Of a stretch of 64,000 nucleotides of DNA, positions 7,531-48,741 are shown piece after piece. The stretch is from Escherichia phage phiP4: sequence record PP993145.1; one strand, given 5' to 3'. Below the pieces are notes generated by a model. That model was not told the DNA's origin, did no database searches, and saw only the letters and a program-made list of their open reading frames with translations. How positions within the stretch are numbered: the first letter of the stretch is position 1; the number at the start of each line of letters is the position of its first letter. The position numbers and the translations under genes are program-made.

Positions 7531-7557
7531 AGTTAATTTCTCCTCTTTAATAACAAT

Positions 7558-7586: not shown

Positions 7587-7603
7587 GAAATTTTTATTTT
7601 TCC

Positions 7604-7632
7604 ATAAAGAAAAGGAGGACATAAAGTCCTCC
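7604..7632 (-). terminator. Rho-independent terminator after pb2
   Basis: Minus-strand hairpin GGAGGAC-TTTAT-GTCCTCC followed by TTTTCTTTAT. Confidence 0.7.
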
Positions 7633-7639
7633 TCCAATA

Positions 7640-10600: not shown

Positions 10601-11323
10601 AGCAGCTTCTTGTAGTGATCTAGCAAGGGACTGAACAGGAGTACCTGTCTGAGTACCTACTATAACACCAAATTTTTCAAGACGATTTAACTGATCACCT
10701 AGTTTAAGTTGTTCGAATGCAGATTGCAAAACGAAGATGTTGGAAGCAATAGCAGCGTATAACAGTGGTAAACCGCCACCTACCTTAGCCATTGCCGCAA
10801 AATCACGAGTTGCACCACGTGCTGAACCAGAAGTATTACCAATGGCTCTAGAAGCTCTACCAGCGGCACCAGCAGTATCATTAAAACCTCTAGCTGTACC
10901 ACCTAAAACTCTATTGGTGTCATACAGCCTATCTTGAACTTTCTCTGTTGCAGCTGCAACATCATTACCCATTGCTTTAACAGATCTAGAAACTCCATCG
11001 AATCCAACTTCTAGTTTATCCGTTACTTCAATAAGCTGGATAGCCAGGTAATCTAGCTTATCACCAATACCATCAATGGATTTAGTGATACCAGCCATAC
11101 CCCTACTAGCTTGCATTTTAGTAAGACTTTTTGCTGCCCTATCCGCTGCCCTCTCAATGGAGTAAAGGGTTTTGGGCATTTTACCTAACTGCTCATTTGT
11201 CAGTTCGGAAGCAGCAGCAGCGTTTTCCAACGCATCAGATACGTTTTCAATAGACTTTGCAGTACGAGTTGCCCCCTTCTGCTTAACATCTATTAATAAT
11301 TCTCGTATTAGCTTATCAGTCAT
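7640..11323 (-). CDS. Tape measure protein pb2-like (1227 aa)
   Basis: Very long Ala/Gln/Glu/Lys-rich coiled-coil ORF with a hydrophobic segment near the C-terminus. Size is close to T5 pb2 (~1219 aa) and the position is upstream of Dit. Confidence 0.9.
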   Translation of the reverse strand: MTDKLIRELLIDVKQKGATRTAKSIENVSDALENAAAASELTNEQLGKMPKTLYSIERAADRAAKSLTKMQASRGMAGITKSIDGIGDKLDYLAIQLIEVTDKLEVGFDGVSRSVKAMGNDVAAATEKVQDRLYDTNRVLGGTARGFNDTAGAAGRASRAIGNTSGSARGATRDFAAMAKVGGGLPLLYAAIASNIFVLQSAFEQLKLGDQLNRLEKFGVIVGTQTGTPVQSLARSLQEAAGYAISFEEAMRQASSASAYGFDAEQLNKFGLVARRAAAVLGVDMTDALNRVIKGVSKQEIELLDELGVTIRLNDAYADYVKQLNAANTGITYNINSLTTFQKQQAYANAVIAESTKRFGYLDEVLRATPWEQFAANADAALRTIQQAAAKYLGPVIDAINTVFYTSQASVSAEAARAQEKTNRQIDPTNVGAVALSLAASEEGYNKALDMYKESLDKRNKLKSEFDKRMEQADFYTKLAIRQVGEGIPVGLAAAGASEANKQFVAETAAMGLQVSRLDKEVEDSTENLTAWKSAFQTAGAAAAKANPEFQKQINLQKDVYDPDAVYDFNSAALKGLTEQQKAYNQTKKTSSDLANDFQNIANSTDTAAKTSATFEEVIRNVESLSAGTGKSADEYVKSLNLGFNTLSEMKTASQALSEYVKLTGNETKNQLAVQQKIADVYNQTKDKEKAQEAGRRLELQQLEEQEAALRRVLQTNQGNKAVEKEIEKIQLEKLKLTNQGMEAQKKVKDYTDKILGVDREIALLNNRTMTDTQYRLAQLNLELTIEKEKYEWYTKQADKQKEAEQSRRSQAQIEREIWKFRQDQQAEMTSKRQEAFENTLTSMFPLAGEMQKMEMQLDFYTQMKELTKGNANEQMRWNAEIAKTRAQISALTAQRNAQMQASVGSSLGAVYTPTTGLSGKDKDFADMGNRMASYDQAISKLSELNSEATAVAQSMGNLTNAMIQFSMGSLDTTSTIAAGMQAVSSVIQYSASQQVSAIDQAIAAEQKRDGKSEASKAKLKKLEAEKLKIQQDAAKKQIIIQTAVAVMQAATAVPYPFSIPLMVAAGLAGALALAQASSASGMSSIADSGADTTQYLTLGERQKNIDVSMQASSGELSYLRGDKGIGNANSFVPRAEGGMMYPGVSYQMGEHGTEVVTPMVPMKATPNDQLSDGSKTTSGRPIILNISTMDAASFRDFASNNSTALRDAVELALNENGSTLKSLGNM

Positions 11324-11836: not shown

Positions 11837-12241
11837 TTACGCTTTTGAGCTACGAAAAGTGTCTAAGTGGAACACTGTCTGGTTGATCCAAGAATCAAAC
11901 GCAGCAGAGTTCTGCATAAGCATTACAGCATTATCACGGCTAAAAGGAACCTCAGTAGCAGGATCAGCATCTGTTTCAATCAGCATCAGTTTTTCAACGT
12001 CACCTACGGTCAAGCCAGTCCAGCCCTTAATCGCAGCATCAACGAAGGCTTCAATAAACTTATCATCATCCTGTACCTGAATCAAAGTACCGTTAACCCA
12101 TTCGTCACGCTTAGCAGAAGTGATAACTCGCTTAGAAGTAGCACGAGACATATAATTAAGCTCTAGCTTAAAGTTCGGCATACCTGGGTATGAAAGAGTG
12201 ACAGTACGAGTTTCTAGAGTAATATCTTTTAAGTTAATCAT
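11837..12241 (-). CDS. Tail assembly chaperone-region protein (134 aa)
   Basis: Assigned from its position upstream of the tape measure and its small acidic character. ATGA-type coupling with the upstream gene. Confidence 0.5.
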   Translation of the reverse strand: MINLKDITLETRTVTLSYPGMPNFKLELNYMSRATSKRVITSAKRDEWVNGTLIQVQDDDKFIEAFVDAAIKGWTGLTVGDVEKLMLIETDADPATEVPFSRDNAVMLMQNSAAFDSWINQTVFHLDTFRSSKA

Positions 12242-13137
12242 TATTTTCTTTCTCCAAAGAAGTTTATTTCTACAGGATCTGAATCAGCAGTAGGTATTAC
12301 ATCATACTCTACCTGATACAAATCTGAGAAGTTTAGGCGTTTTGAAATACGTGCTAAAGGGAATGTTATAGAAACATATTTATTTTTAATAATTAGGGGA
12401 GTTCTTGTTTCAGGATCTAGATTCAAGAACTTATCTCCTACCAATCTCTTAACGTAATAGAAAGCTAGCGTTGCGGAAGCATTCATTTCATTGACATAAG
12501 CTCGTTTATTAGTATAAACTTTGTTTATATCAAATATACTTCTATCTTCTCTCCAAGAACATTGTTGTTGGAAGGACATAGATGCTGAAATTAATGCCGG
12601 CAGCGGCGCGCTATTAGTATACACAGCTGGGGGACTATACGGAAGTACTTCACCTTGTGTAATTGTATATCCATCACGGAAAGTAGATACTTCAGAGAAT
12701 TTTCCAGACTCAATACCAACATTTAGAATTGGTACACTCTTATCTAGAGAAAAATCAACTGTTGATACATAACAGTTTTCGAAATAAATACAGCTATTAT
12801 TATAATTAATAATATACATATTGAACATAATAGGTTCAATATTGGGAGTATTTCTTGGCAAAAATAAAGAATTCCCCTCACGCGTGAATCCCATCCAATC
12901 AAAGAAATTAGACTCAATAAGCGTAGTACTGAAATTTATTGCCAATGAAATAGATGAAGGATCTTGAGCATTAATAATAGAGTCTGCATAGTTAGTACGA
13001 TTATGGATAGTACGTCTAAGAGTCTTAAACTCTTGAAAAGACGTACTAGCATCATAGTTAGAGAGGGCATCGAAATGATACCCCCTACCATCGTACTCAA
13101 TAACTATTTTAGACTCTCGCATGAGAGAATAAAACAT
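12241..13137 (-). CDS. p140-like tail/collar protein (298 aa)
   Basis: Assigned by synteny immediately downstream of the tail tube gene, from my recollection of T5 gene order. Confidence 0.55.
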   Translation of the reverse strand: MFYSLMRESKIVIEYDGRGYHFDALSNYDASTSFQEFKTLRRTIHNRTNYADSIINAQDPSSISLAINFSTTLIESNFFDWMGFTREGNSLFLPRNTPNIEPIMFNMYIINYNNSCIYFENCYVSTVDFSLDKSVPILNVGIESGKFSEVSTFRDGYTITQGEVLPYSPPAVYTNSAPLPALISASMSFQQQCSWREDRSIFDINKVYTNKRAYVNEMNASATLAFYYVKRLVGDKFLNLDPETRTPLIIKNKYVSITFPLARISKRLNFSDLYQVEYDVIPTADSDPVEINFFGERK

Positions 13138-25212: not shown

Positions 25213-25450
25213 TATTATAATTGCTTTTATTATCGGGATACTCGCGGGGGTTTTCGGGACGACTGCGGCAATCAATAAGCACCGGAAATATATTGCGGGA
25301 GTGTCGCGGGAGATTGCGGAAAGGGAGCGGAAGTTTGACGAGAAACGTGCGGAGTTTGAGAGGGAATGGTCGGATGGATCTCGGGCGTCGCGGAAGAGAT
25401 TCCGTGAGTTCAGACCAGAACACAGGTTTGATGACCCTTCTATGCGCTAA
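25205..25450 (+). CDS. Small single-pass membrane protein with Arg/Glu-rich tail (81 aa)
   Basis: TM segment FSIIIAFIIGILAGVFGTTAAI followed by a charged tail. Fourth member of a coupled chain of small ORFs. Confidence 0.55.
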   Translation: MFSIIIAFIIGILAGVFGTTAAINKHRKYIAGVSREIAERERKFDEKRAEFEREWSDGSRASRKRFREFRPEHRFDDPSMR

Positions 25451-25551
25451 TTTGACTTTTGCCAAATTTCATAAGATTACACATGGAGGTGTGTCCAGTG
25501 GCCTCCCGGATGAGAATGAGTCTCATTACCGCCTGGTACTTAGCAAGCTAA

Positions 25552-25596
25552 TAGTCACGATATGCAATGATAACATACCGTGACTATTTCAATTTT
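25552..25596 (+). terminator. Convergent-operon hairpin/terminator between the small plus-strand ORFs and dmp
   Basis: Stem TAGTCACG...CGTGACTA (8 bp) followed by TTTCAATTTT. Confidence 0.45.
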
Positions 25597-25601
25597 AATT
25601 A

Positions 25602-26336
25602 TTACGCGACTTTTAATTTCTCAATATATTGTTGCGGGCTGCAACTATATTCTGCGCGTTCTTCCTCGGTCATACTTTCCCAACATAATTTCAATCGGTC
25701 CGCTAGGAACTGATAATCATTATCATCATCAAGCGATTCATCAATAAAGGTTCCGCCTATCAATGCCACGCCGATTGATAGAATATCATTAACGGCTTGC
25801 GCATCCAGCGTTTTAAATCCGTATGATGCCGCCGCCGCCAATACTCCTTTATGGTCATCAATCATTGTAAAATCAGCGTTCGGGTATAATTGTTTGAATA
25901 GCTCGAAATAATAACTTTTATATACTGCATCCTTGCTGTGGTATATTTCGCTAACCTTATCAGCCGTAAAATATTTGTGAAGTGTATCGCGGGAAAATAC
26001 ACGGATATTGGTATCCCCACGCCCGCGCAATCCTTGTTTGCGTAGGAAGTAATAATCTGACTTGCTCATCAGGCGAGCGGTGCAAATAATGTTTAAAGTA
26101 TTTGCGTCATTCATGCATTGGCGCATATATTCCACCAAAGGCAATAAAGTATCTTGCATTATTAAATGATGCTTGCAAGCCTCGTTTTTGTATTTATTTA
26201 AATCTAAATTCCCGTCGCTATCAAAGCAAGGCGCTACACGATGGAATGAATTAACGATAGTGCCATCAAGATCCCAAATCATGACGCGGGAAATATGCGG
26301 AAAATTACGGGTAATATTCGTTTTAACTTGATTCAT
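25602..26336 (-). CDS. dmp: 5'-deoxyribonucleotidase (pre-early), HAD-type (244 aa from ATG 26336; ORF track start 26378)
   Basis: HAD motif I VMIWDLDGTIVNS. 244 aa from the SD-preceded MNQVKT start, equal to the size I recall for T5 Dmp. Synteny with A1 and A2. Confidence 0.75.
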   Translation of the reverse strand: MNQVKTNITRNFPHISRVMIWDLDGTIVNSFHRVAPCFDSDGNLDLNKYKNEACKHHLIMQDTLLPLVEYMRQCMNDANTLNIICTARLMSKSDYYFLRKQGLRGRGDTNIRVFSRDTLHKYFTADKVSEIYHSKDAVYKSYYFELFKQLYPNADFTMIDDHKGVLAAAASYGFKTLDAQAVNDILSIGVALIGGTFIDESLDDDNDYQFLADRLKLCWESMTEEERAEYSCSPQQYIEKLKVA

Positions 26337-26416
26337 TTTGTTACGTTCTCCAATAAAGGGATCTAGTTTATCCAGCATTGCCCGCTATTTATAAGCGGGC
26401 AATAATAAATCAACTA

Positions 26417-26809
26417 TTAAAGGCCATAAGCCAACGCATCAGCGATAAAACTAATATCCTCGCCAGATACACCGGAACGAATACCAGCACAAGTATATAC
26501 TTTCGCGCTAGATAGCTGATCATCAAAGCAAGCTGGGCAAGGCGCGACAACTGCAAACGCAAGGCCAGCTTTCACGGCGTCGATGATAATCGTTTCCTGC
26601 TTCACCGTATCAACATAAACGCCCGCGGCCTTGATGTGACTACTTGCGCGGCCTTGCGTATAGGCGAAAGTCGTGATCTGTAGCGCCTCATTAAACTCAA
26701 TTAAGTCATCAACAACGTGACCGGCCTCAACGTGATACCGCTCACCATTTGAATAAACCAGAACGATTGAGGACTGAGCGCGATCGAATGGAATATTTTG
26801 CTTTTTCAT
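26417..26809 (-). CDS. Pre-early hypothetical protein (130 aa)
   Basis: ORF between A1 and dmp with E. coli-like codon usage. No motif recognised. Confidence 0.6.
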   Translation of the reverse strand: MKKQNIPFDRAQSSIVLVYSNGERYHVEAGHVVDDLIEFNEALQITTFAYTQGRASSHIKAAGVYVDTVKQETIIIDAVKAGLAFAVVAPCPACFDDQLSSAKVYTCAGIRSGVSGEDISFIADALAYGL

Positions 26810-26881
26810 ATTTATAAAACTCCAATTAATTTAATAAACTTTTATAGCGGCTATATTTCAAGCCGCTGGGGAATAATTTAA

Positions 26882-28546
26882 TTACGCGAAAAATTTGCCG
26901 TTTTTAAAGTCAATCAAAGTGCGCTGCCCGTTCGCATAGGTAATTAAATGCGTTTGCGTCCAACTTGACGCGCCAACGTTGTAACCCATATCCAGACTAC
27001 CAGCAACGCCAGCGGTATAAACGCCGCCGTAAATGCTGGCGGTGTGGGTGTGCCCCGTGTTTAATTTGCCCAATTTCTTAAACTGCTTCGGATTACCACG
27101 GCTGCCGTTAATGCCGTTGTGACCGTGTACGCCGCATTCAATGCCTGCAATTTTAAATGATTGGTCAGTGGTCAGGAAAATTGCGTTAAACTCGCAACCT
27201 GCGACGTCACGCAGCGCATAATCCAGCACGTTGAAAGTATCGTCATGATTACCGATTGCCGCGTAAATCGCAGCATTAAGGCGGTGATATAGTTCCGCAT
27301 TGGCTGGATCGTCTTTAATGTTAGCATTGCGATCATCAAGCCAACGGGATAACGCCAAATCGTGGTTTGATTCGACAATGATCGTTTGACTAAAATCGCG
27401 CTCCATTGACTCCAGCACGCGCCCGGTATCGATCAGATCATCCAGAACTTTATCACGTCCGGCTGCATACTGTTTCGCTAGGAATACACCAGAGGCGCGA
27501 TTATGATGATTGCGCGATGTAAAATCATGCACGTCATGCACAAACTGATATTTAGGCTTGAGAATATCAAGCAAGCTGTTTTCGCCAGCCCATGACGCTG
27601 CGGCGCACTCCTCATCTAATTTCTCGGCGTGTACGTCGCCATATTGCAAGCCTAAAACATGCCCCGACGTTTCAAAACATCCGGCGGGAGTGGCGCAAAT
27701 ATTCAAATCGTAAAACATGCCGCTTTCGTCCATCGTTTCAAGCTGGCGAACAAAAAATTCCCCGTCCTCGTCGAACTCAACAATCAGCGCACCGTAATTA
27801 TGCAGCGCCTCCGCTTTTTGCCCTGCTTTTTGCTGAATGTAGTTTTTGAGCGTTGCCGTTCCGGTTGAGTACATGCGGCGTACTACTTCACCTTTGAGAG
27901 CTGGCACGCTTTCAGCGGTGATTTTAGCGTGACCAATTGCCAGACCTTCCAGATTAAGCGCGGTTGCAGTTTCAGCAAATCCAGATAGCGGATAATCTGC
28001 CGTTGGCAAAACATTAATTTCAGCCATGAAAGCAAAACGGCGATTGTTTAAAAACACGTTTTTGCTGCAAATATATTTATCAAACGCGGAATCATATTTT
28101 ACACCGTCTGCGCCTTCTCCGTTCTGAAAACCGTTTTTATTATAAATATACTTAGAAACAAGCAAATCAGCGCCGATAAATTTAGCATATTGTTCAAGCG
28201 AGGCTAAAAAGTTTTTATGCGGGAAAGTATTGTTCTGAATTGATGTAATAATAAAGCGTTTGCCCTGTTTTACTTCCCACTGTTCCACCGTGCTGGAAAT
28301 AATTCCAGCCGCCTCGGGGCGCTCGTCGTTTTTAATGGCTTTTGCTACTTTCGCCGCTTTTGGTTTTGCTGGTTTATTTGCTTCCAGCCAATCACAAATC
28401 GCGGTCGAGTGTTTCGTTGTATCGTAGACCGCTTTTGATATATCGTCGCAGACTTCCAGCTTAGTAGCGCGCAGACGTTTACCGTAGAAATTAAAGTCAG
28501 CGGCCAGCTTCAGGATAACGGTTTGTTTTTCTGCGGAAATAATCAT
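26882..28546 (-). CDS. A1: Pre-early protein A1-like, metallophosphoesterase-type (554 aa from SD-preceded ATG at 28546; ORF track start 28636)
   Basis: Calcineurin-like phosphoesterase motif series (GDVH, VHDVHDF, ESNHD, GVHGHNG, TGHTHT). Size is close to T5 A1 (556 aa as I recall), and it is adjacent to A2 and dmp. Confidence 0.75.
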   Translation of the reverse strand: MIISAEKQTVILKLAADFNFYGKRLRATKLEVCDDISKAVYDTTKHSTAICDWLEANKPAKPKAAKVAKAIKNDERPEAAGIISSTVEQWEVKQGKRFIITSIQNNTFPHKNFLASLEQYAKFIGADLLVSKYIYNKNGFQNGEGADGVKYDSAFDKYICSKNVFLNNRRFAFMAEINVLPTADYPLSGFAETATALNLEGLAIGHAKITAESVPALKGEVVRRMYSTGTATLKNYIQQKAGQKAEALHNYGALIVEFDEDGEFFVRQLETMDESGMFYDLNICATPAGCFETSGHVLGLQYGDVHAEKLDEECAAASWAGENSLLDILKPKYQFVHDVHDFTSRNHHNRASGVFLAKQYAAGRDKVLDDLIDTGRVLESMERDFSQTIIVESNHDLALSRWLDDRNANIKDDPANAELYHRLNAAIYAAIGNHDDTFNVLDYALRDVAGCEFNAIFLTTDQSFKIAGIECGVHGHNGINGSRGNPKQFKKLGKLNTGHTHTASIYGGVYTAGVAGSLDMGYNVGASSWTQTHLITYANGQRTLIDFKNGKFFA

Positions 28547-28635
28547 AATAATAAACTCCATTAAAGGGATAAGGTTAATAACGGCAATATTGCCAAATAT
28601 AACGCCTCCAATAATAGGCGTTATAATTTGCAACA

Positions 28636-28833
28636 TTAATTTAAAGGCATCAGGCTAGAACTAACACCACAAACAACGGCGGCAATAAAACAAATCAGGC
28701 CCAAACGCTTCGCTAACTTAGATTTGCGTTTAAAATAATACGAATCTAAATCATTTTGAAAATATGCGAACAATAACGAGGCCGCCATAATAAATAAGCC
28801 TAGAATCAACGATTCAGTAGGGTAAAAGATCAT
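28636..28833 (-). CDS. Small two-TM membrane protein (65 aa from SD-preceded ATG 28833)
   Basis: MIFYPTESLILGLFIMAASLLFAYF...LGLICFIAAVVCGVSS, preceded by an SD (ctggagttattaaaATG). Confidence 0.5.
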   Translation of the reverse strand: MIFYPTESLILGLFIMAASLLFAYFQNDLDSYYFKRKSKLAKRLGLICFIAAVVCGVSSSLMPLN

Positions 28834-28890
28834 TTTAATAACTCCAGTTAAAGGGAAATTATAGTGGGGAATAATCCCCACTATTTAAAT

Positions 28891-29298
28891 TTATTCACCT
28901 GCGGCCTGTTTTACTTCATCGGCAACGCCTAACAACTGCGCCACGGCGTCCAGCGTTTCCAGCTTCGCGCTTTCAAGGCTTGCCAGATCATCGGCGTCCT
29001 TGATAATGCCGGAATCAATAGCGTGTTTTGCAATCACTCGCACGTAATGAGCTTTGCGGATTGAACTACCGCCGCCAACTTTGCGCGGCTTATCGCTTTT
29101 TTGATATGCTTTCGCGCTGGTCAATTTTGAGCGAACTGACACGGGAGAAGCCGCGCCAACTGCTTTCGCAATCTCTTTCAGGCCGTCGCTATTTGCGAAA
29201 TCTAAACCGTTTTCATTGATTAACTGCTGATACATGGTAACAGCTTTTTGGGTGTTTTCTTCGTTCCAAGAAAATTTTGCGGTTTTTGCGTTAGTCAT
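28891..29298 (-). CDS. A2: Pre-early DNA-binding protein A2-like (135 aa)
   Basis: Its 135 aa equals T5 A2, and it lies immediately upstream of A1. Confidence 0.7.
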   Translation of the reverse strand: MTNAKTAKFSWNEENTQKAVTMYQQLINENGLDFANSDGLKEIAKAVGAASPVSVRSKLTSAKAYQKSDKPRKVGGGSSIRKAHYVRVIAKHAIDSGIIKDADDLASLESAKLETLDAVAQLLGVADEVKQAAGE

Positions 29299-29398
29299 GG
29301 TAAAAACTCCAATTAATTTAATTTAAGGGATTAAATGATTAACTAATGTTAATCGTTATATGCCCCGAACTACTGGGGCATATAAAGTTAACACTATA

Positions 29399-29650
29399 TT
29401 ATAAAACGGCTTCCCATTTTTCGTTACGTTGAACAACCTTTACAACGTCGCCGGATTTAACGCGAACGCTAAAAACGGTTTTTCCGTTGTTACTGCGCTC
29501 ATTTTCAGCGTATACCGCGTCGATTGTATCAAACGGCATAAGCGCCGCGCCTTTAATACGTTCGGCTTTTCCGGTTAATTCATCCGTTTTAGTAACGAAA
29601 GGAATAAAAACAGATTGACCAATTTTCGGCGCGGTAATAACGTTTTGCAT
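29399..29650 (-). CDS. Pre-early hypothetical protein (83 aa)
   Basis: ORF with an SD (aactggagtttatattATG), upstream of A2. Confidence 0.55.
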   Translation of the reverse strand: MQNVITAPKIGQSVFIPFVTKTDELTGKAERIKGAALMPFDTIDAVYAENERSNNGKTVFSVRVKSGDVVKVVQRNEKWEAVL

Positions 29651-29687
29651 AATATAAACTCCAGTTTATTTGATGGATTGTTCCGCA

Positions 29688-29715
29688 TTATCTGCTAGAA
29701 AATACTAGCAGATAA
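29688..29715. promoter_or_regulatory. Perfect 11-bp inverted repeat TTATCTGCTAG-aaaata-CTAGCAGATAA (operator-like) upstream of the leftward pre-early operon
   Basis: Palindrome read directly from the sequence. It overlaps a GATAAT -10-like hexamer on the minus strand. The TAGCAGA half-site recurs at 30636 and 30697. Confidence 0.55.
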
Positions 29716-29853
29716 TAAGAAGAAATCCGCTCGCCATTATAAAATCAATTTAAGGAACTCCACGCGGGCCGCTATATCCCAGTTAGGGGGCGGGATGCAT
29801 TATGGTAAGCACCGACCGTCAAATTGTATCAAGTTATCGCTCTTATCGAACTG

Positions 29854-29876
29854 GGTACATCTTAAAGCCTATCGGC
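29854..29876. repeat. Left copy of 23-bp inverted repeat (GGTACATCTTAAAGCCTATCGGC) flanking the 67-aa ORF
   Basis: Its reverse complement matches 30120..30142 at 22 of 23 positions. Confidence 0.85.
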
Positions 29877-29883
29877 TAGGTTG

Positions 29884-30087
29884 TCAAACTATTTTTTGCA
29901 GTTTTTTATGATTTTCCTTCAGGTCGATCATAATATTTCGCCAGATCATTTCTAGTCCTTGCTGGCGGCCTTTCTTGTACTGCTCAAATCGATATTTTAC
30001 CGATCTTTGCGCTACTGTCAATAAATTTTTTGTTTTGCTATCCAGTGCCTTGCTAGGTTTACCAGTGATCAATAAAGTTTGTTTCAT
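29884..30087 (-). CDS. Small basic protein (67 aa) bracketed by a 23-bp inverted repeat
   Basis: ORF MKQTLLITGKPSKALDSKTKNLLTVAQRSVKYRFEQYKKGRQQG..., Lys/Arg/Gln-rich. Function unknown. Confidence 0.45.
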   Translation of the reverse strand: MKQTLLITGKPSKALDSKTKNLLTVAQRSVKYRFEQYKKGRQQGLEMIWRNIMIDLKENHKKLQKIV

Positions 30088-30119
30088 ATCGTCGATTCCT
30101 TATAATGAATAAGTTTACC

Positions 30120-30142
30120 GCCGATAGGCTTTAAGATATACC
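30120..30142. repeat. Right copy of 23-bp inverted repeat flanking the 67-aa ORF
   Basis: GCCGATAGGCTTTAAGATATACC, with one mismatch to the reverse complement of 29854..29876. Confidence 0.85.
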
Positions 30143-30635
30143 CAATTTTTAAAGAGCGCGGCGGTAAACTCCCCGCCGTGTAGTTCGTCATTGCCGCCCT
30201 ACGAGATAAATAATAACAAACAACGAAAAAGGCGCAACCTTATATTTGTAAAGAAATGTAAAGACAAACGCCACCGGACACCGTGCGGCGACCTGGGCGC
30301 GGCGCATTAAAATTAAAAGAAACGGGCGCGCGAATACCACAAAACACAGCAGATAGGCAAGTAATTTTTTCATTTATATTTGCTTTGCCCTACTTGACAA
30401 AATCTAAAAAGCTCGTGGCAGCGATAAACGGCTTATCCCCTTATGATGGGATGGCTAAAAACTTTATTGCGTTCTGGGGCGTTTTAGGCCGCCTATTTTC
30501 GACTTAACAAATCATTAACAAACGCAAAATTGAAAAATAGTTGGAAAAGGTCTTGACTTTTAAAAATCAAGATCAAATGACTTATTTTATAAAATAAATT
30601 AATTGACTTTTATTTGTTAGTATGCATCGGAAAGA

Positions 30636-30714
30636 TAGCAGACTATTAATCACTAGAAGGATGATCATGCTGGTGGATTGTAACGGCCTGAATTATTAGC
30701 AGACTATTAATCAC
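30636..30714 (+). repeat. Two 18-bp direct repeats TAGCAGACTATTAATCAC (30636-30653 and 30697-30714)
   Basis: Identical 18-mers with starts 61 bp apart. They share the TAGCAGA core with the palindrome at 29688. Confidence 0.8.
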
Positions 30715-30776
30715 GGAAAAACTCATTAGCCAACTAACTATTTCATGATATATAATATACTTATAAATTAATGAGA

Positions 30777-30857
30777 AATAATAACTATAAGAAATCATCA
30801 CCATTATAATAATAACTATAAGAAATCATCACCATTATAATAATAACTATAAGAAAC
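30777..30857 (+). repeat. 31-bp tandem repeat AATAATAACTATAAGAAATCATCACCATTAT x about 2.6
   Basis: Two exact copies plus a 19-nt partial third copy, read directly. Confidence 0.85.
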
Positions 30858-30866
30858 TATCGGCAT

Positions 30867-30998
30867 AAGTGAGAACCACTATCATTTAAGTTATCCACAA
30901 TGTTATCCACAGCACAAAATAATTTGACACGATAGGCGGCGATATAAGGGCTTATCCACAGACTTATCCACAGGTTATCCTACTGTATAAATATACAG
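30867..30998. repeat. Left arm of large imperfect inverted repeat (pairs with 34010..34143)
   Basis: AAGTGAGAACCACT...TTATCCACA...TTGACA...CTTATCCACAGACTTATCCACAGGTTATCCTACTGTATAAATATACAG aligns along its whole length with the reverse complement of the right arm. Confidence 0.75.
30891..30983 (+). promoter_or_regulatory. DnaA-box cluster: 4 perfect TTATCCACA (30891, 30903, 30952, 30964) plus TTATCCTAC (30975)
   Basis: Exact matches to the 9-mer DnaA box consensus TTATCCACA, read directly. Confidence 0.8.
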
Positions 30999-31263
30999 GG
31001 TAAAAAGGCAGTGTTAACGACTGCAATCAATTTTAAGCGGCCTAAAACGCTTTCTAACGAGCTAAACGCTGTGGGGTAATATTAAAGTAAAGACCCAACG
31101 CGGTGCCCTGGTGGCTTCGCCGTGTTTTGCTCTTTACCGTACCGCTGCGCGGTTATCATAAAAATAGGCGTTAGGCAAGGAAAATAAAAAAGTAAAATAA
31201 TCTTTGCCTATGCTAGAAAATTACCCTTATCATTTACTCACCGATTAACGAGAGGGCCAACAA

Positions 31264-32256
31264 ATGAGGCTATATAAACCAGATAACGCAACCGTCTTAA
31301 AAGGTGCGCTGCGTAACCTGCTGGATGGTAGCAGAACAACCAGCATCCGGCATTTTGTTTTCAATATTGAAACTATTCATCAAAACTTTTTTGATGAATA
31401 TGACGCTTATAATATGAATAGTTTTCTACCGTTATATAAACAAGGGGCAACGCTTGTTTTGTATAATCAGGATTATCAATTGCTCACTAGTCGGGGGCCG
31501 GATACTGATTTCATAATCGTAAAAGGCAACACAGTAAAAGCCTATGATACTGGGGCGGGCTTAGAAGTTTTTTCAATAGAAAACTATGAGGCTAATGATA
31601 ATGATCTTTATGACGTAGAAAATTTTCTTGATTCATTTTGGCGTTATTTATCAGTTGGCTGGAATCGGTCGGATTCTGATGGGTATCGTTTTGCGGCTAT
31701 AATGGCCTTCGATGATAACGGTAATTTTTTGCTACCGTCGGAACTATGCCCGTATGTTTATAATGATCTGATACAGGAGGCCGGTTTTACTTTCTGGAAA
31801 GATGAGGATCAGATTATTAACAGTATAGAAAAACATGCTGTAAATTCTAACACTCAAAGCGTTATCACTCAAACTACTGAAAATAAAGGAAAAAACACTA
31901 TGACCAAGATCGCTAACATCGTTGCCGCCAATAAGTCTGCCGTTGTAAACGCTGCAAAACTGGAAGCGGGTAAAATTGCACTAACTCAAATCACGAAAGT
32001 AGCGGCTAAAAAAGCACCGTTCATGATCAAAGGTTATATCGATACGCCGATTGGTCGCGTAGTAATCGCTAACCTGCTGAGTGTAGCGGTTGACCAGTAC
32101 GCCCCGAGTAACCAGAAAGCGAAAGCGGTAGCGGGGGCGGCTATGGAAGCGGCAATGTTGGAAATGGTGCAAAGTTTTAACATCGCTGAGATGATCGATG
32201 AAATGGTAAAAGGTATCGATATTTCTACTTTTACCAATAACACCGAAAACGAGTAA
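31264..32256 (+). CDS. Hypothetical protein (330 aa), possibly two in-frame products (internal SD+ATG at 31900)
   Basis: Long ORF. The N-terminal ~210 aa are Asp/Asn/Phe/Tyr-rich, and the C-terminal ~118 aa are Ala/Lys-rich and amphipathic, preceded by AAGGAAAAAACACTATG. Confidence 0.6.
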   Translation: MRLYKPDNATVLKGALRNLLDGSRTTSIRHFVFNIETIHQNFFDEYDAYNMNSFLPLYKQGATLVLYNQDYQLLTSRGPDTDFIIVKGNTVKAYDTGAGLEVFSIENYEANDNDLYDVENFLDSFWRYLSVGWNRSDSDGYRFAAIMAFDDNGNFLLPSELCPYVYNDLIQEAGFTFWKDEDQIINSIEKHAVNSNTQSVITQTTENKGKNTMTKIANIVAANKSAVVNAAKLEAGKIALTQITKVAAKKAPFMIKGYIDTPIGRVVIANLLSVAVDQYAPSNQKAKAVAGAAMEAAMLEMVQSFNIAEMIDEMVKGIDISTFTNNTENE

Positions 32257-32283
32257 TAACTAGCCCATTGTAAAGTTTTGTAA

Positions 32284-32311
32284 AGGCCGCCTTTTATGGT
32301 GGCCTTTTTTG
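32284..32311 (+). terminator. Rho-independent terminator after the 330-aa ORF
   Basis: GGCCGCC-TTTTAT-GGTGGCC followed by TTTTTT. Confidence 0.7.
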
Positions 32312-32376
32312 TTATAATGCCTTTACACCGTTTGAGGACGGTTGAAAATTTTCCCAAAAAATTTTGGAGGCTTAAA

Positions 32377-32607
32377 ATGGTTGCTTTTTCTTCTTCTGAC
32401 GCTCTTTTCACTGGAAAAGGCTGGGTATCAAATCGCTGGATTATTCAGGAAATGGTGCAAGAGTACGGCATTGCTAAAACTTATACTACCATTCAGGCGC
32501 TTTATGATAATGATCAAATCGATCAGCAAACGGCGGGCTTTTTACTGGATACCCTGAAGGCGGAACACTGTACCAAAAAACAAGCCGCTAAAATTGTTTT
32601 AATGTAA
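32377..32607 (+). CDS. Hypothetical protein (76 aa from SD-preceded ATG 32377; ORF track start 32296)
   Basis: TTGGAGGCTTAAAATG ribosome-binding context. The ORF-track N-terminal extension overlaps the terminator. Confidence 0.55.
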   Translation: MVAFSSSDALFTGKGWVSNRWIIQEMVQEYGIAKTYTTIQALYDNDQIDQQTAGFLLDTLKAEHCTKKQAAKIVLM

Positions 32608-32656
32608 TTAATAACGGGGCGAAAGTATCGCCCCACTAACTAGGGGAGTATCACAA

Positions 32657-32839
32657 ATGATTATTTTTCGAGCTTTTTTAGCGGGTATCTTGGGAGCTAT
32701 TTTGACCCTTTTCGCCACCGCTTACGGTATTCAGGATTCCTATTGCGGTTTGGTAAACACAAAACCTATGGTTACTATAGGCGCTGGTATCGCTGTATTT
32801 TCTTATCTGCTGGGCTGCATGAATAGTAAAGGAGAATAA
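32657..32839 (+). CDS. Small two-TM membrane protein (60 aa)
   Basis: Hydrophobic segments FRAFLAGILGAILTLFATAYGI and VTIGAGIAVFSYLLGCM. SD taggggagtatcacaaATG. Confidence 0.55.
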   Translation: MIIFRAFLAGILGAILTLFATAYGIQDSYCGLVNTKPMVTIGAGIAVFSYLLGCMNSKGE

Positions 32840-32841
32840 AA

Positions 32842-33054
32842 ATGATCCGCAACGTTTCTCTTGCACGTTCGAAAGGTTTTAAGCTGGTGGACGCTAACAC
32901 GTTCGAGCGTCCAGATTGCAAGATCGAATATGTAGCACGTAATAAAAATGCCTTTCGTGTTACCGAGAAAAAATTTGATAAGCGCGGCAACGTGATCCTT
33001 GAAACGGTTAGGCACTTTGCCACCTTTTACGCTGCATTTCGTGGGGTACTATGA
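32842..33054 (+). CDS. Hypothetical basic protein (70 aa)
   Basis: SD aaaggagaataaaaATG. ATGA overlap with the next ORF. Confidence 0.55.
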   Translation: MIRNVSLARSKGFKLVDANTFERPDCKIEYVARNKNAFRVTEKKFDKRGNVILETVRHFATFYAAFRGVL

Positions 33055-33194
33055 AAAGCGTTATTGTTGTTATCCTTGCAATGGCTGGCGGTTTTATCGC
33101 CACCTTATTTAAGAATGATCCCACTTCGTTGGGTATCTTTATGCTTTTATCGGGCTATCTGATCGGGAGGTTGTCAAATGATAGCGCAAATTAA
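33051..33194 (+). CDS. Small membrane protein (47 aa)
   Basis: Hand-translated as MKSVIVVILAMAGGFIATLFKNDPTSLGIFMLLSGYLIGRLSNDSAN, translationally coupled. Confidence 0.45.
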   Translation: MKSVIVVILAMAGGFIATLFKNDPTSLGIFMLLSGYLIGRLSNDSAN

Positions 33195-33300
33195 AACGGC
33201 TTTTCGTTTTTGGGGCGTCCTGCCTTCAATTGGTTTTATTCTGATAATCATTAGTCAGCTAATGATTATCGTTGGCGTTATCTGGGAGCTATGCAAATGA
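33178..33300 (+). CDS. Small membrane protein (40 aa)
   Basis: MIAQIKTAFRFWGVLPSIGFILIIISQLMIIVGVIWELCK, preceded by an SD (GGGAGG). Confidence 0.45.
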   Translation: MIAQIKTAFRFWGVLPSIGFILIIISQLMIIVGVIWELCK

Positions 33301-33641
33301 TCATTTACGAGGGCAATCGCTTTGTTGCTAATTGCCGCCCGGCATTGTTAGCAAACTATTTAAACCAGCTTTCACCAGCTTATAAGGGCGTTATTAATAT
33401 TTACGAGGGCAAGGCGCATTATAAAATCAATGCGGTCGTTGCCCGTGAACTAGCGTTTCAATTTTTAACCTTTGCATCTTGCGACGTTCAGGTTATGGGT
33501 GAGGCGTTAATTGCAGAAAATGAAGACGATTTTATTAATATTTTCCGTAAGGTATGCACCGAGCGCCTGATAATCAAAGGCGCATATATTCAATCCACGG
33601 CTGATAGTATTGAAACAGCGTTTCGAAAGGTGGCGCAATGA
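33291..33641 (+). CDS. Hypothetical protein (116 aa)
   Basis: ORF coupled to its flanking small ORFs. No motif recognised. Confidence 0.55.
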   Translation: MQMIIYEGNRFVANCRPALLANYLNQLSPAYKGVINIYEGKAHYKINAVVARELAFQFLTFASCDVQVMGEALIAENEDDFINIFRKVCTERLIIKGAYIQSTADSIETAFRKVAQ

Positions 33642-33751
33642 AACGATGGTTTAATCACTGGTACAAGCGGTTTTTAGTACGCCGTCGCAAGTCTAGGCAT
33701 CAAGATGAGTGGCGGGAGTGGGCAAAGCGTAACGGTTGCCCACTAATATAA
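33638..33751 (+). CDS. Small Arg/Trp-rich protein (37 aa)
   Basis: MKRWFNHWYKRFLVRRRKSRHQDEWREWAKRNGCPLI, with an ATGA overlap with the upstream ORF. Confidence 0.35.
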   Translation: MKRWFNHWYKRFLVRRRKSRHQDEWREWAKRNGCPLI

Positions 33752-33790
33752 TAATCACGGGGCGCAACTATCAGGGAGTGCCCCCAATTT

Positions 33791-33813
33791 TCAAATGATA
33801 ATCATTCTCATTT
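33791..33813. promoter_or_regulatory. Fur-box-like palindrome TCAAATGATAATCATTCTCATTT
   Basis: TCAAATGATAATCATTCTC matches the 19-bp Fur consensus GATAATGATAATCATTATC at 15 of 19 positions (hand alignment). Confidence 0.5.
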
Positions 33814-34009
33814 GACCGCGCCCGCGATGGTTAGCCTGCTAATGGTTCGGGTGTTACGTGTCGCCTTGTGTGATCGTTAGCTCGCTAACTAATTTTCAAG
33901 CCTCCTCCAATTTTGCCCTTGTTTTAGTATCCCCACCAAAATTAAACGCGTTAGAATGCGTTTGAGAGCGTTTTAACGCTATATTAGAATTATTCGCTGC
34001 GTAGGAATA

Positions 34010-34143
34010 CTGTATATTTATCCAGTAGGATAAGCTGTGGATAAGTCTGTTAATAACGCCTCAAAATGGCTAGGGTTTTGTCAAGTCAAATCGTGCTGTT
34101 AATAAGTCTGTGGATAACTTAAATAACAGTGTTTCTCACTTCC
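34010..34143. repeat. Right arm of large imperfect inverted repeat (pairs with 30867..30998)
   Basis: Its reverse complement reads CAGACTTATCCACAGCTTATCCTACTGGATAAATATACAG...GAAGTGAGAAACACT..., colinear with the left arm. Confidence 0.75.
34025..34117 (-). promoter_or_regulatory. DnaA-box cluster on opposite strand: TGTGGATAA at 34036 and 34109, GTAGGATAA at 34025, degenerate TGTTAATAA at 34048 and 34097
   Basis: Two exact reverse complements of TTATCCACA plus three variants, mirroring the left arm. Confidence 0.75.
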
Positions 34144-34149
34144 GTTCTT

Positions 34150-34367
34150 AAATGAGAATCATTATCATTTGTATTTCACTATCTAACTAATAATCATTCC
34201 ACTATCTAACTAATAATCATTCCACTTTCTAAATGAGAATCATTCCGCTTTTTAAATGAGAATCATTTCACTTTTTAAATGAGATTGATTCTCATTTCAC
34301 TTTCTAAATGCGAATTATTATCATTCTCATTCCGCTTTTTAAATGAGAATGATTCTTATTATCATTC
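34150..34367. repeat. Degenerate ~23-bp tandem array (6 copies) of AAATGAGAATCATT(N)C(N)CTTTTT containing Fur-box-like palindromes
   Basis: Copies start at 34150, 34231, 34254, 34277, 34306 and 34341. The first (TTAAATGAGAATCATTATC) matches the Fur consensus at 15 of 19 positions. 34277-34297 is the palindrome AAATGAGA-TTGAT-TCTCATTT. Confidence 0.7.
34177..34222 (+). repeat. 23-bp exact tandem duplication CACTATCTAACTAATAATCATTC x2
   Basis: Read directly from the sequence. Confidence 0.85.
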
Positions 34368-34374
34368 GTATTTA

Positions 34375-34400
34375 GCGCAGAGCAATTGCTCTGCGCTTTT
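34375..34400 (+). terminator. Perfect 22-bp palindrome GCGCAGAGCAATTGCTCTGCGC followed by TTTT
   Basis: Perfect hairpin with a T-run. It separates the AT-rich Fur-like array from the iteron array. Confidence 0.55.
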
Positions 34401-35000
34401 GTGCAAATCCGACATTGCTCCACGGGTGTTACGTGCGGGCGTGTATGTGCGAATCCGACAATTTTTGGTAGTGTGCAAATCCGACCCGAAAAATTTTTAT
34501 AGTGTGCAAATCCGACAATGAATTTTCCTAAAAACTCCAGCAATCCGATGCTGCGCATCAATCCTGTGGAATTAGCTAGAGTATGTGCAAATCCGACATG
34601 GGTTTATTTGTGCGAATCCGACAAGATTTTTGTGACTTCGATTGGAGGGTGTGTGATTGTGTGGGTTTGGGGAGAAGTTGAGAGAGCGAGAGAAAATAAG
34701 AGGAGAAGCTAGAGGGGCAGCAGTGGTGGCGTGCAACGCCTGATTTGCTGCGTTTTTGGGGAGAGTTGAAAAGATTTGGGTTAATTTGAGATTAGTGGAG
34801 ATAAAGTAAAATTTTATTAGCAAAATGGGGCAAAATAGCTTGACAAGTGAAAATTTCTGTGGCTCTAAAAACTCAGGCAATCACGGGCCTTCGGCCCGAA
34901 ATAATGCTGCCATTTTCAGGAGATTATATGTTCCTAAAAACTTAGGCAATTGTGCAAATCCGACCATAAATTTCTAGAAACACAATGTGCAAATCCGACA
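34401..35000 (+). repeat. Iteron array: 8 same-orientation copies of GTGC(A/G)AATCCGAC(A/C)
   Basis: Copies at 34401, 34447, 34473, 34504, 34585, 34610, 34952 and 34987. They are interspersed with CCTAAAAACT..GGCAAT (34527, 34865, 34932) and TTTCTAGAAA-type motifs, and there is no credible ORF. Confidence 0.85.
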
Positions 35001-35043
35001 GTAATTTCTGGAAATGTGTTTTCAAAAAATGTCTCCTAGAAAT

Positions 35044-35114
35044 AACCGCCCTCCCCATAACCGCCCTGTATTAAACCGCCTAGTATATGTTCCTAGAAAC
35101 TTGGGAGAACCGCC
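35044..35114 (+). repeat. Four direct AACCGCC heptamers (35044, 35059, 35074, 35108)
   Basis: Read directly. The first three are spaced 15 bp apart. Confidence 0.6.
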
Positions 35115-35249
35115 CACTAGAAGCGTGAGATCTCGTGAGTATTTCGTGAGAACTCTGGAGTTTCTAGGAAAGTGTTGTGCCATCCTAGCAGATGAGCGGC
35201 AACCGGTGTATCATCTTGAATGTAAATTATGTGGTCAAAAGTTTTACCT

Positions 35250-35431
35250 TTAATTTAAGTATAAGATCCCCCAAGATTGGAAGAGATGCTCCACCCCTGG
35301 GATACGAATTGCGTGAGATGGTACAAAACTTCTTAAGATTTCCCTAGTCCTTCGACAAGCTACGGGGGAAATAGAAGTTTCCCATCCACCATCCGTATCC
35401 GGGTGGATCTCTTTATTCTATGTTATTTCAT
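35250..35431 (-). ncRNA. Candidate non-coding transcript/leader driven by the promoter at 35438..35466, reading into the repeat region
   Basis: No ORF longer than 10 codons lies downstream of a consensus promoter. It contains hairpins ATCCACC...GGTGGAT and GGGAAA...TTTCCC. Confidence 0.3.
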
Positions 35432-35437
35432 AGAGTT

Positions 35438-35466
35438 ATTATAACATGCAGAAATCATAACGTCAA
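35438..35466 (-). promoter_or_regulatory. Early-type sigma70 promoter (-35 TTGACG, 17 bp, -10 TATAAT) pointing toward the terminal-repeat block
   Basis: The reverse complement reads TTGACGttatgatttctgcatgtTATAAT. Confidence 0.55.
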
Positions 35467-35473
35467 GTAGAGT

Positions 35474-36364
35474 TTATTCATCGAACATGAGATTTCCTTT
35501 CATCCCCATCTCCGCATACTCCATGAGTTCTTTGATGGATCTCACGGGGTAATCTACTTTACTAAAGTTATCATAGATCTTACATGAACTCTCATACAAC
35601 TCGTTAGGTATCTGCAATTTGTTATCTGTTAGCTTCTCATAACGTGCAGAAGAATTTGTACCGTCAAACAGAACTGCGATAACTGCGGCGATTTGTTTAG
35701 TAAGATCATCTGCTCCTAGAATTATTCTATTAATAGCAATCGTTACTTCATGCTTAGGTTTAGCAGGTGGAAGGATAGGTTTGAGATCCTTAGGTAAAGG
35801 TTCTGTTCCTAGGAATCCTTCTTTTGTGCGGAACCAATAATTATCTAGATCAGATATCGTCTTAGACTTATTCCAAATAGTGAAGCAGGGTTTATTTCCT
35901 TCACGATCTCTGTATTCACGAATTGGAAGGTAATGATCAGGGAATGAATTGAGTGCATCATGCATCGGTGAGCCTGTCTTTTTGAATGACAAACCATACA
36001 ACTCATTATAATTCATAACTTCATCTTCGTAAACATGGAAATCTTTATATGCTGGAAGATTAAACCATTCCTGAAGTGAATGAACTGCAAAACGTTGTGC
36101 CCAAGCATGCATCACTAGAACTCTGTATTCTTTTACTTCATCTTTTGGAGAAGTACCTTTAGCTGTTCTAGCTGAACGAATACAGAACATCTCAACAACA
36201 CGTTTCTCATTTAAAGAGAGTTCAGAATAACAACGTTCATGGCAACCTTCTAGCATTTCTAGAAGTTCACGTAGTTTCTCTACATCGACCGGTGGAAAAG
36301 GTCTTTCTTCAACTGCGAATTTACCAGTTACACCTTTTGGTTTTCTATTACTATAAAATCCCAT
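35474..36364 (-). CDS. Hypothetical early protein (296 aa)
   Basis: Long ORF, ATGA-coupled to the upstream gene. No motif recognised. Confidence 0.7.
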   Translation of the reverse strand: MGFYSNRKPKGVTGKFAVEERPFPPVDVEKLRELLEMLEGCHERCYSELSLNEKRVVEMFCIRSARTAKGTSPKDEVKEYRVLVMHAWAQRFAVHSLQEWFNLPAYKDFHVYEDEVMNYNELYGLSFKKTGSPMHDALNSFPDHYLPIREYRDREGNKPCFTIWNKSKTISDLDNYWFRTKEGFLGTEPLPKDLKPILPPAKPKHEVTIAINRIILGADDLTKQIAAVIAVLFDGTNSSARYEKLTDNKLQIPNELYESSCKIYDNFSKVDYPVRSIKELMEYAEMGMKGNLMFDE

Positions 36365-48346: not shown

Positions 48347-48456
48347 ATTATCTCCAGTTATGGCTAGCAGCCACCTCACCACTTACCGCACTAAGGGGCA
48401 CGACTCCCTTATCCGTAACAGTTGCAGGTGACGCAACTCGGTCCTACGCGAGTTCT
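48347..48456 (-). ncRNA. G+C-rich structured intergenic element (candidate small RNA / leader)
   Basis: 110-nt ORF-free spacer, visibly far more G+C-rich than its flanks. Stems AACTCG/CGAGTT, AAGGG/CCCTT and TCACC/GGTGA are seen on the minus-strand reading. Confidence 0.3.
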
Positions 48457-48741
48457 TTAAGTATTCTGCATTTCAGCTTTAAATTTTTTCATATTACGAG
48501 TTTTTCTATAAAAGAAAAACACAGATGTTGGGCCTAGAAGAATATCTACAATAAATATCATAGATCTAGCACATCTGAGTAATGTTTTATCATCAAGAGG
48601 TGGCAGATCTAACGGTCGAGTTTTATGTATAACGTATAATATTACATCTTTATTCTTAGAAATATACAGATCATCAACCAAGCTGTAAATAGCAACCACA
48701 GATCCAATGACGAACCAAAGAGCAAATGGAGAGATAATCAT
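48457..48741 (-). CDS. Membrane protein (94 aa)
   Basis: Two hydrophobic segments. Confidence 0.55.
   Translation of the reverse strand: MIISPFALWFVIGSVVAIYSLVDDLYISKNKDVILYVIHKTRPLDLPPLDDKTLLRCARSMIFIVDILLGPTSVFFFYRKTRNMKKFKAEMQNT

Follow-up and report, generated by a model that had tools for sequence, protein, structure and literature searches.

Candidate Fur operators in the phiP4 homologue of the T5 injection-stop region

Which protein, if any, reads the repeats that lie where DNA transfer of T5-like phages comes to a halt? The question is raised by a locus of Escherichia phage phiP4, from which we analyzed a stretch of 64,000 nucleotides (sequence record PP993145.1, one strand; hereafter the window). 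The window is that of a T5-like phage of the family Demerecviridae, and between positions 33791 and 34367 it carries palindromes that an earlier note had likened to binding sites of the host regulator Fur. For T5 and BF23, a cis-acting halt of DNA transfer at ~8% of the genome is known from the literature, with no assignment to particular repeats; the T5 injection stop signal, or Repeat Region 3, was treated in Heusterspreute 1987, Wang 2005, and Davison 2015, as cited in Davison 2020 (bioRxiv 10.1101/866236). The last of these names the repeats of the array DRE2, DRC copies, and palE-J without giving a ligand, places the calculated shear point at 9618, and mentions neither Fur nor iron. It also reports that the pause needs no phage protein synthesis and is absent in vitro, where ejection through FhuA proteoliposomes is complete; a host factor is therefore expected, and the responsible host protein is called 'unsolved' there. 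DnaA was proposed as the stopping factor, and restriction-like cleavage by A1/A2 has also been proposed in the literature (Davison 2020). A 2026 preprint describes the stop site merely as repeat-rich non-coding DNA, and reverse genetics is now available. Our literature search combining Fur with T5 terms found no link of these repeats to Fur in searchable papers, in keeping with the earlier note, to which no description of Fur sites in the T5 injection-stop region was known. Here we put forward, as a tentative reading that falls a little short of an even call, that the array, an isolated site at 33791-33815, and probably also a terminal site at 25512-25530 may be genuine operators for host Fur, judging by the sequence comparisons described below.

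The array consists of directional units of 23, 29, or 35 bp at 34148..34369 on the + strand, delimited by Tandem Repeats Finder (TRF), a repeat search, and matrix scoring, and it corresponds to T5 9549-9712, which holds the DRE2/DRC repeats and palE-J. Each unit joins a core, AAATGAGAAT-n-ATT(NTCATT), to a pyrimidine-rich spacer, CCACTTTCT. TRF reported a period of 23 with 5.2 copies at 34173-34291, and periods of 29 and 35 extend the array to 34367; the unit spacings are 23, 23, 23, 35, and 29 bp, so that the periods differ in 6-bp steps. The motif AAATGAKAATSATT has 8 exact matches on both strands, every one within 33793-34354, and when up to 2 mismatches were allowed, 26 matches were found against 5.2 expected, a count reached in none of 100 shuffles. 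Thus, the palindromes, the isolated site, and the ~23-bp tandem array listed in the earlier note are all present and far exceed chance, and the site at 34277-34297 is indeed palindromic (AAATGAGATTGATTCTCATTT). Each 23-bp unit can also spell an 8-codon mini-ORF (ATG AGA ATC ATT CCA CTT TCT AAA TGA), which we put down to AAATGA.

To score these sites, we built a symmetric 19-bp Fur matrix from 18 E. coli operators (consensus GATAATGATAATCATTATC; 16.9 bits of information). K-12 coordinates of footprinted or gel-shifted operators were taken from Chen et al. 2007 (PMC2189734), their letters were taken from NC_000913.3, and the coordinate offsets were verified against gene starts; the aerobactin operator was added to the set after it had been confirmed ~20 bp upstream of iucA on 793 plasmids. 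In leave-one-out scoring, the 18 true operators reached 8.1-24.2 bits (median, ~19), and at 16 bits or more the matrix picked out known Fur sites only in 49 kb of E. coli DNA. We therefore describe matches at a main cutoff of 16 bits, with weaker tiers at 14 and 12 bits, and used dinucleotide shuffles as controls (60 for the whole window and 1000 for 33780-34370).

At the main cutoff, the window holds 11 matches against 0.77 expected, a number that no shuffle of the 60 attained, and all 11 lie in the 9.4-kb terminal-repeat block (25400-34800). Seven fall within 33780-34370, where 0.02 were expected (0/1000 shuffles), and the block minus the array still has 4 against 0.14 expected, which no shuffle equalled. 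In the array itself (34148..34369), 10 matches reach at least 12 bits, 7 at least 14 bits, and 5 at least 16 bits, with a maximum of 22.6, compared to shuffle expectations of 0.16, 0.065, and 0.03. The highest scores are 22.6 bits at 34345, 20.7 at 34148, 19.8 at 25512, 19.7 at both 33791 and 25712, and 19.3 at 25706, followed by 18.8 at 34310, 17.1 each at 33797 and 34154, 16.3 at 33258, and 16.1 at 34304. These values of 16 to 22.6 bits lie inside the range of experimentally bound operators. Counted by identity to GATAATGATAATCATTATC, the sites at 33791, 34148, 34310, 25512-25530, and 33258 match at 15 of 19 positions, those at 34345 and 25706 at 16, and that at 25712 at 17; all 8 positions of the 64-kb window with at least 15/19 fall in 25512-34363. 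The hand alignment of the earlier note, which gave 15/19 for two sites, is borne out at 33791 and 34148, as is its related palindrome AATGAGTCTCATT at the other end of the block, which is the site at 25512-25530, and the comparison that it had proposed, of matrix scores with dinucleotide shuffles and the rest of the window, gave counts that shuffled DNA never reached. The sites at 25706, 25712, and 33258 are additions to those of the earlier note.

The finer architecture of the sites also follows that of Fur operators. The inverted 7-1-7 heptamer dyad TGATAATnATTATCA is the model of Baichoo and Helmann, as used in Table 2 of Chen 2007 (PMC2189734). It is present at 14/14 positions at 25711, at 13/14 at 33796 and 34153 (the near-perfect dyads TGAGAATCATTATCA and TGATAATCATTCTCA, 13/14 each), and at 12/14 at 34309 and 34350; the rest of the window has only one dyad of at least 12/14. 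Matches overlap at a 6-bp offset, as in natural Fur clusters, in the pairs 33791/33797, 34148/34154, 34275/34281, 34304/34310, and 34339/34345. Moreover, AATGAGAATCATTAT is common to the phage sites and the aerobactin iucA operator, as confirmed upstream of iucA, and variation within the phage core is greatest at the base that corresponds to the unconstrained centre of the Fur dyad. Base frequencies in the non-anchoring half of the unit correlate with the E. coli Fur matrix at r = 0.92 (column-permutation p = 1e-4), which is supportive but not independent evidence because the units share ancestry. Among KdgR, Zur, ArgR, NrdR, and IHF, none to our knowledge fits the array as well as Fur.

Outside the array, the isolated candidate operator at 33791..33815 is a 23-bp palindrome, CAAATGATAATCATTCTCATTTG, made of two 19-mers at a 6-bp offset (19.7 and 17.1 bits; 7-1-7 dyad, 13/14); it lies just 3' of the hairpin that follows the last pre-early ORF and is identical at 18 of 20 bases to the ryhB operator stretch AATAATAATCATTCTCATTC. 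The palindrome GAGAATGAGTCTCATTACC at 25512..25530 (19.8 bits; 15/19) lies 19-37 bp from the left end inferred at ~25494 and belongs to a terminal element that is kept throughout the family. Two further overlapping 19-mers at 25706..25730 (19.3 and 19.7 bits) form the perfect 7-1-7 dyad TGATAATCATTATCA (25711-25725; 14/14). They lie within the dmp coding region and are kept in T5 (228-252), BF23 (227-251), and Klebsiella phage GZ8 (203-227, 25.3 bits), a conservation that may reflect coding constraint. A single site at 33258..33276 (16.3 bits; 15/19) falls in a small pre-early ORF.

Compared to the E. coli Fur operators of iucA, ryhB, entC, fhuF, and nohA/nohB, the phage sites have the same consensus, the 7-1-7 dyads, and the 6-bp-offset overlaps, and they score in the upper half of the natural range. 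The layout differs: the E. coli operators are contiguous hexamer runs, whereas the phage array is made of discrete, directional units with ~10-nt spacers over ~220 bp, and unlike those operators it overlaps no promoter or iron-related gene and sits in a virulent phage. Because the spacers divide the array into separate sites, a count of contiguous runs of positive-scoring positions in the manner of Chen 2007 was uninformative here. By every sequence test that we ran, the sites proposed in the earlier note are Fur boxes; its arguments from the receptor, from titration, and from transcription fail or weaken, as discussed below. Fur is thus very likely to bind array DNA; judged from such comparisons, binding of Fur-Fe2+ in vitro is nearly certain, and the array would probably be occupied in an infected iron-replete cell. 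That selection acted for Fur binding, with Fur as the selected ligand, is our leading hypothesis, but one held at slightly less than even confidence.

Where, then, does the array lie on the phage DNA? The segment 33700-34700 matches 445 phage records, with Salmonella phage WP85 on top (94% identity), and the region aligns with T5 9100-11000 at 85% identity over 1717 aligned bases. The T5 annotation places an 'injection stop signal (iss)' at 9140-10149, within the left terminal repeat 1-10219; in the window, the counterpart of the iss is 33624-34795, and T5 10219, where the terminal repeat ends, falls at ~34865. With the left terminus inferred at ~25494, the array is ~8.66-8.87 kb from it; this is the distal end of the first-step-transfer DNA and the place of the stop. 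The earlier note had counted it to the first DNA to enter the cell; it sits at the far end of that segment, not at the leading one. The calculated shear point of Davison (T5 9618) maps to 34263, inside the array, and the annotated major single-strand interruption of T5 (9748/9749) maps to 34396/34397. From left to right, the region comprises the last small pre-early ORF, a hairpin, the isolated palindrome, two pairs of DnaA-type boxes, the array, a 24-bp palindrome, and six TGTGC(A/G)AATCCGACA repeats. This non-coding block closes the left terminal repeat on its right side and is syntenic with the DnaA-box inverted repeats, nick palindrome, and DRD repeats of T5; Repeat Region 3 of T5 is the same element, with the same order of terminator, DnaA-box inverted repeats, array, nick palindrome, and DRD repeats. 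Unlike T5, phiP4 has the additional isolated site at 33791-33815 and a Fur-like left-terminal site; the isolated site has no T5 homologue and is present in MM-1 (3092-3116 of the examined stretch). The description of the array as ORF-free holds, as the homologous T5 stretch is without annotated coding sequence and the listed ORFs (e.g., 34279-34521) run through repeat DNA.

The array is conserved in the terminal repeats of T5 and BF23, the comparison that the earlier note had suggested. Matches in the T5 array (9549-9712) score 20.7, 19.2, and 20.6 bits, the array of BF23, a classical two-step phage, lies at 9094-9246 and reaches 22.6 bits, and that of Pectobacterium phage My1 lies at 12225-12336 and reaches 20.6 bits. 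In Pantoea phage AAS21, the cores are kept with different spacers, at up to 20.0 bits. In IMG/VR, we found 28 distinct T5-like arrays, each with 5-8 matches of at least 14 bits; their lengths range from 183 to 303 bp, and units have therefore been gained and lost.

A sensitive DNA search with the array also retrieved short intergenic stretches outside the T5-like group, in Vequintavirinae (KE23 and KaOmega) and in 145-156-kb phages that include Phapecoctavirus tuntematon. These stretches of Vequintavirinae and Stephanstirmvirinae hold 3-5 tandem copies of AAATGAGAAT(C/G)ATT(A/C)TCATTT at a spacing of 23-29 bp, with scores of up to 23.5 bits. Their flanks are unrelated to T5, and they lie in long non-coding regions of large virulent myoviruses. 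In the examined stretches, the clusters are at 1499-1552 in Salmonella phage KE23, 1503-1617 in Klebsiella phage KaOmega, 1498-1615 in Escherichia phage Antha, and 2470-2590 in Phapecoctavirus tuntematon, and the Antha stretch has matches in ~260 phage records. Some records end within 1-3 kb of the cluster, and there the cluster could be close to a physical terminus. An IMG/VR scan for paired cores gave at least 120 loci, only ~10 of them T5-like and the remainder of 21-65% GC; the motif pair is thus not specific to T5-like phages. In three of these contigs (61%, 41%, and 34% GC), a Fur-like motif pair precedes, by 250-300 bp, a gene that PHROGs names terminase or terminase small subunit. We take this as no more than a lead, as PHROGs named 3 of 7 hand-picked genes in a biased sample; Pfam was uninformative.

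Lambda and DLP12 offer a precedent at a genome end. In NC_001416, a site at 48447-48471 (19.4 bits), with the perfect 7-1-7 dyad TGATAATCATTATCA at 48452-48466, lies on the cosQ side, at 32-56 bp from the right cohesive end. Lambda DNA enters the cell with this end first, and we know of no role of the cos-adjacent Fur site in packaging or injection. The DLP12 copy (K-12 580589-580613) lies upstream of nohD, next to cosN, and corresponds to the nohB site, for which Chen 2007 predicted a strong Fur cluster; the related nohA oligonucleotide was gel-shifted in that study (PMC2189734). The lambda cosQ, DLP12, and Qin nohB/nohA sites thus resemble the present case in having a strong Fur box close to the end of a phage genome, at a distance of tens of base pairs; they differ in being single sites of temperate lambdoids, whereas phiP4 has an array in a virulent phage. 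CtrA boxes of alphaproteobacterial phages (PMC9437464) are likewise sites for a conserved host regulator in phage intergenic DNA for which a coupling to host physiology was proposed, but the regulator and the hosts are different and the boxes are promoter associated.

A role of Fur in the pause is attractive because a pre-existing host factor is needed, no pause occurs in vitro, and the stop coincides in position with the array. The Fur-Fe2+ dimers of an iron-replete cell would load on the 7-1-7 dyads once the DNA is exposed in the cytoplasm; the 29- and 35-bp units would take two overlapping dimers each, and the 23-bp units would take one. With DnaA bound to both neighbouring box pairs, Fur could form a host-protein complex of >300 bp where first-step DNA gives way to second-step DNA, beside the major nick site. 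Such a complex would most likely act as an iron-status-dependent roadblock or anchor, helping to hold the DNA at the pause or insulating the paused end until the phage A1/A2 proteins restart transfer. We consider any role of Fur in the pause itself improbable. Equally small is the chance that we give to a broader proposal, in which Fur, probably with DnaA, would be the host factor of the T5 pause and Fur boxes would recur at the ends and in the packaging or injection regions of unrelated enterobacterial phages, coupling entry, end protection, or packaging to iron. Examples that this proposal would cover are the terminus and injection-stop region of T5-like phages, the cosQ side of lambda, the non-coding hubs of rV5-like and phAPEC8-like phages, and the metagenomic sites upstream of terminase small-subunit genes.

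Several observations weigh against Fur as the selected ligand or as a factor of the pause. In T5-like arrays, conservation of the spacer (CCACTTTYT) roughly equals that of the core, every unit faces the same way, and positions 1-3 of the 19-mer are fixed as TTA, whereas Fur weakly prefers GAT; this directionality, spacer conservation, and fixed TTA suggest that another protein reads the units as well as, or instead of, Fur. In Klebsiella Sugarlandvirus GZ8 the repeat layout is retained, but the best iss match is only 15.2 bits. In Proteus phage M4H10_20, the equivalent non-coding region carries ~10 copies of a different 15-18-bp direct repeat, CCCACCATTCTATTATTC (3538-3725 of the examined stretch), so an array at this place may be a family feature with a changing unit sequence. 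A Vibrio T5-like phage has no match of at least 14 bits in 17.8 kb. Klebsiella, Proteus, and Vibrio hosts all have Fur, yet the array is degraded, replaced, or absent there. Furthermore, the array overlaps no promoter, containing only weak sigma-70 matches (9/12) with no downstream gene. A protein bound to DNA already inside the cell does not obviously stop further entry, and the genome-wide screens of Mutalik et al. 2020 report no fur loss-of-function effect on T5. Cells that overexpressed feoB or ydiE were protected against T5 in the same study, an effect that its authors explain by Fur repression of fhuA.

The main rival to Fur, doubtful but not negligible in our estimate, is a phage protein with the entire directional unit as its recognition site. 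The units would then be iterons for A2, a packaging or terminase accessory protein, a virion end-binding protein, or a replication initiator, and their likeness to Fur boxes would be incidental to an AT-rich palindromic core. The head-to-tail orientation, the 23-bp period, and the spacers conserved within T5-like phages speak for such a reader. A2, for its part, is an essential DNA-binding protein that is needed for the second step and has no known target. Direct repeats next to DnaA boxes are the layout of the iteron origins of RK2, P1, and F, and the array agrees with the expected 17-23-bp direct repeats phased at ~22 bp, with a period of 23 and box pairs 30-110 bp upstream. The drift of the unit sequence with phage lineage, as in Klebsiella GZ8 and in the Proteus phage with its other 18-bp repeat, also fits. 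So does the left-terminal element, which carries a related motif ~20 bp from the genome end. In the window (25494-25535) it reads GGATGAGAATGAGTCTCATTACCGCC; in My1 and Aeromonas phage AhSzw-1 (1-45 and 9075-9105 of the examined stretches) it reads TAAATGAGAATAAGTCTCATTACCGCCC and is identical over 28 nt, as a phage-specific end or packaging signal would be. The A1 protein of AhSzw-1 is ~33% identical to that of the window. T5, BF23, and GZ8 retain only AGTCT...CGCC. The element is probably an end or packaging signal, and the identity between My1 and the Aeromonas phage speaks for a phage-specific end function, irrespective of any other ligand.

Other data do not favor an iteron array. Homologues of A2 were found only in the T5-like set, including Vibrio phages without the array, and none was found in the core-bearing Vequintavirinae or Stephanstirmvirinae; the occurrence of the array thus does not follow that of A2. 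No phage protein synthesis is needed for the pause, and the T5 replication origins lie near the genome centre (Davison 2020). No initiator gene adjoins the array, the rest of the genome not having been searched for one. A random AT-rich 23-bp unit would contain a Fur match of at least 18 bits with P ~1e-3, a rough estimate from the shuffle rates, and the Fur match extends to which positions may vary.

Less probable still is a structural or processing element that need involve no sequence-specific protein. Phased T/A tracts and nested palindromes would make the DNA curved, stiff, or extrudable, so that it stalls in the tail or envelope channel or positions the nearby nick or the terminal-repeat cut. 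Nested inverted repeats do run throughout the array (e.g., 41-nt arms with 71% complementarity), the tract TTTTTAAAT recurs once in each unit, and the array adjoins the nick-site palindrome, ~500 bp from the end of the terminal repeat; DNA bending in a neighbouring spacer was noted by Davison. The complete ejection through FhuA proteoliposomes means, on the other hand, that DNA alone does not stop transfer. A structural element also predicts neither conserved Fur-informative bases around a free dyad centre nor the same core in unrelated phages with different spacers.

Derepression of the host iron regulon by an array acting as a Fur sponge, the titration put forward in the earlier note, is implausible to the point of dismissal: multicopy Fur sites can titrate Fur in vivo, as in the Fur titration assay (FURTA) behind some sites of Chen 2007 (PMC2189734), and the genome has two arrays, one in each terminal repeat, but at the first-step stage a single copy with roughly 10-15 dimer sites would face thousands of Fur molecules, and within ~5 min of infection the host DNA is broken down and its transcription shut off (Davison 2020), so that later derepression could do nothing.

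Two other arguments of the earlier note fare no better. Its receptor rationale, that T5-like phages adsorb to mostly Fur-regulated receptors (FhuA and FepA) or to BtuB, is contradicted by BF23, which uses BtuB (PMC10644984) yet carries the same array; the receptor-binding protein of NBSal005 clusters with that of BF23 (PMC10644984), and NBSal005 also matched the array region in our DNA search. For iron-responsive pre-early transcription, we saw no target and no promoter that is convincingly overlapped. A rightward promoter candidate at 33962-33990 (10/12) was set aside, as its -35 element is not kept in T5. A small RNA with its promoter in the array and the palindrome as terminator was also discarded, given the weak promoter matches and the lack of the hairpin in My1 and GZ8; an Rfam scan of 33000-35500 gave two matches only, far under gathering scores.

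The neighbouring features complete the likeness to T5. The two pairs of DnaA or DnaA-like boxes at 34036..34117, identified by sequence reading, are TGTGGATAA-gtc-TGTTAATAA (34036-34056) and TGTTAATAA-gtc-TGTGGATAA (34097-34117); they are the homologue of IRD'-spacer-IRC' and align with T5 9332-9520, and such pairs were described in T5-like phages by Davison (2020). An inverted-repeat search located the perfect 24-bp palindrome AGCGCAGAGCAATTGCTCTGCGCT at 34374..34397, followed by TTTTGTG, which is homologous to the major nick (7.9%) site of T5. Its change relative to T5 is compensatory (CAGAGC/GCTCTG in the window, CAGGGC/GCCCTG in T5), and with the TTTTGTG it looks like a + strand terminator. 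No such palindrome or hairpin is found in the homologous regions of My1 and GZ8. The DRD repeats, so named by Davison (2020), occupy 34400..34625 on the + strand as direct-repeat families D4 and D6. Between the divergent pre-early operons, in Repeat Regions 1 and 2 of Davison, there are a perfect 31-bp tandem repeat, AATAATAACTATAAGAAATCATCACCATTAT, at 30777-30856 (2.6 copies) and a doubled DnaA box, CTTATCCACAGA x2, at 30951-30973. A strong promoter-like site on the - strand at 35438-35466 (TTGACG, 17-nt spacer, TATAAT, and an upstream TG; 11/12) faces the terminal repeat, with no convincing ORF downstream. In the late region, tandem repeats at 900-1360 (periods of 21, 42, and 105 bp) and 2334-2426 (periods of 18 and 36 bp) resemble coding-region repeats.

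The repeats themselves had already been catalogued in T5; what is new is the Fur reading of them. How T5 injection pauses after 8% of the genome has been a question since the 1960s, and Fur is a concrete new candidate that can be tested cheaply. In the literature searched, we found no description of a link between host iron status and phage infection through arrays of this kind. Even without a role of Fur in the pause, conserved Fur-box arrays in unrelated virulent phages would link host iron status to infection.

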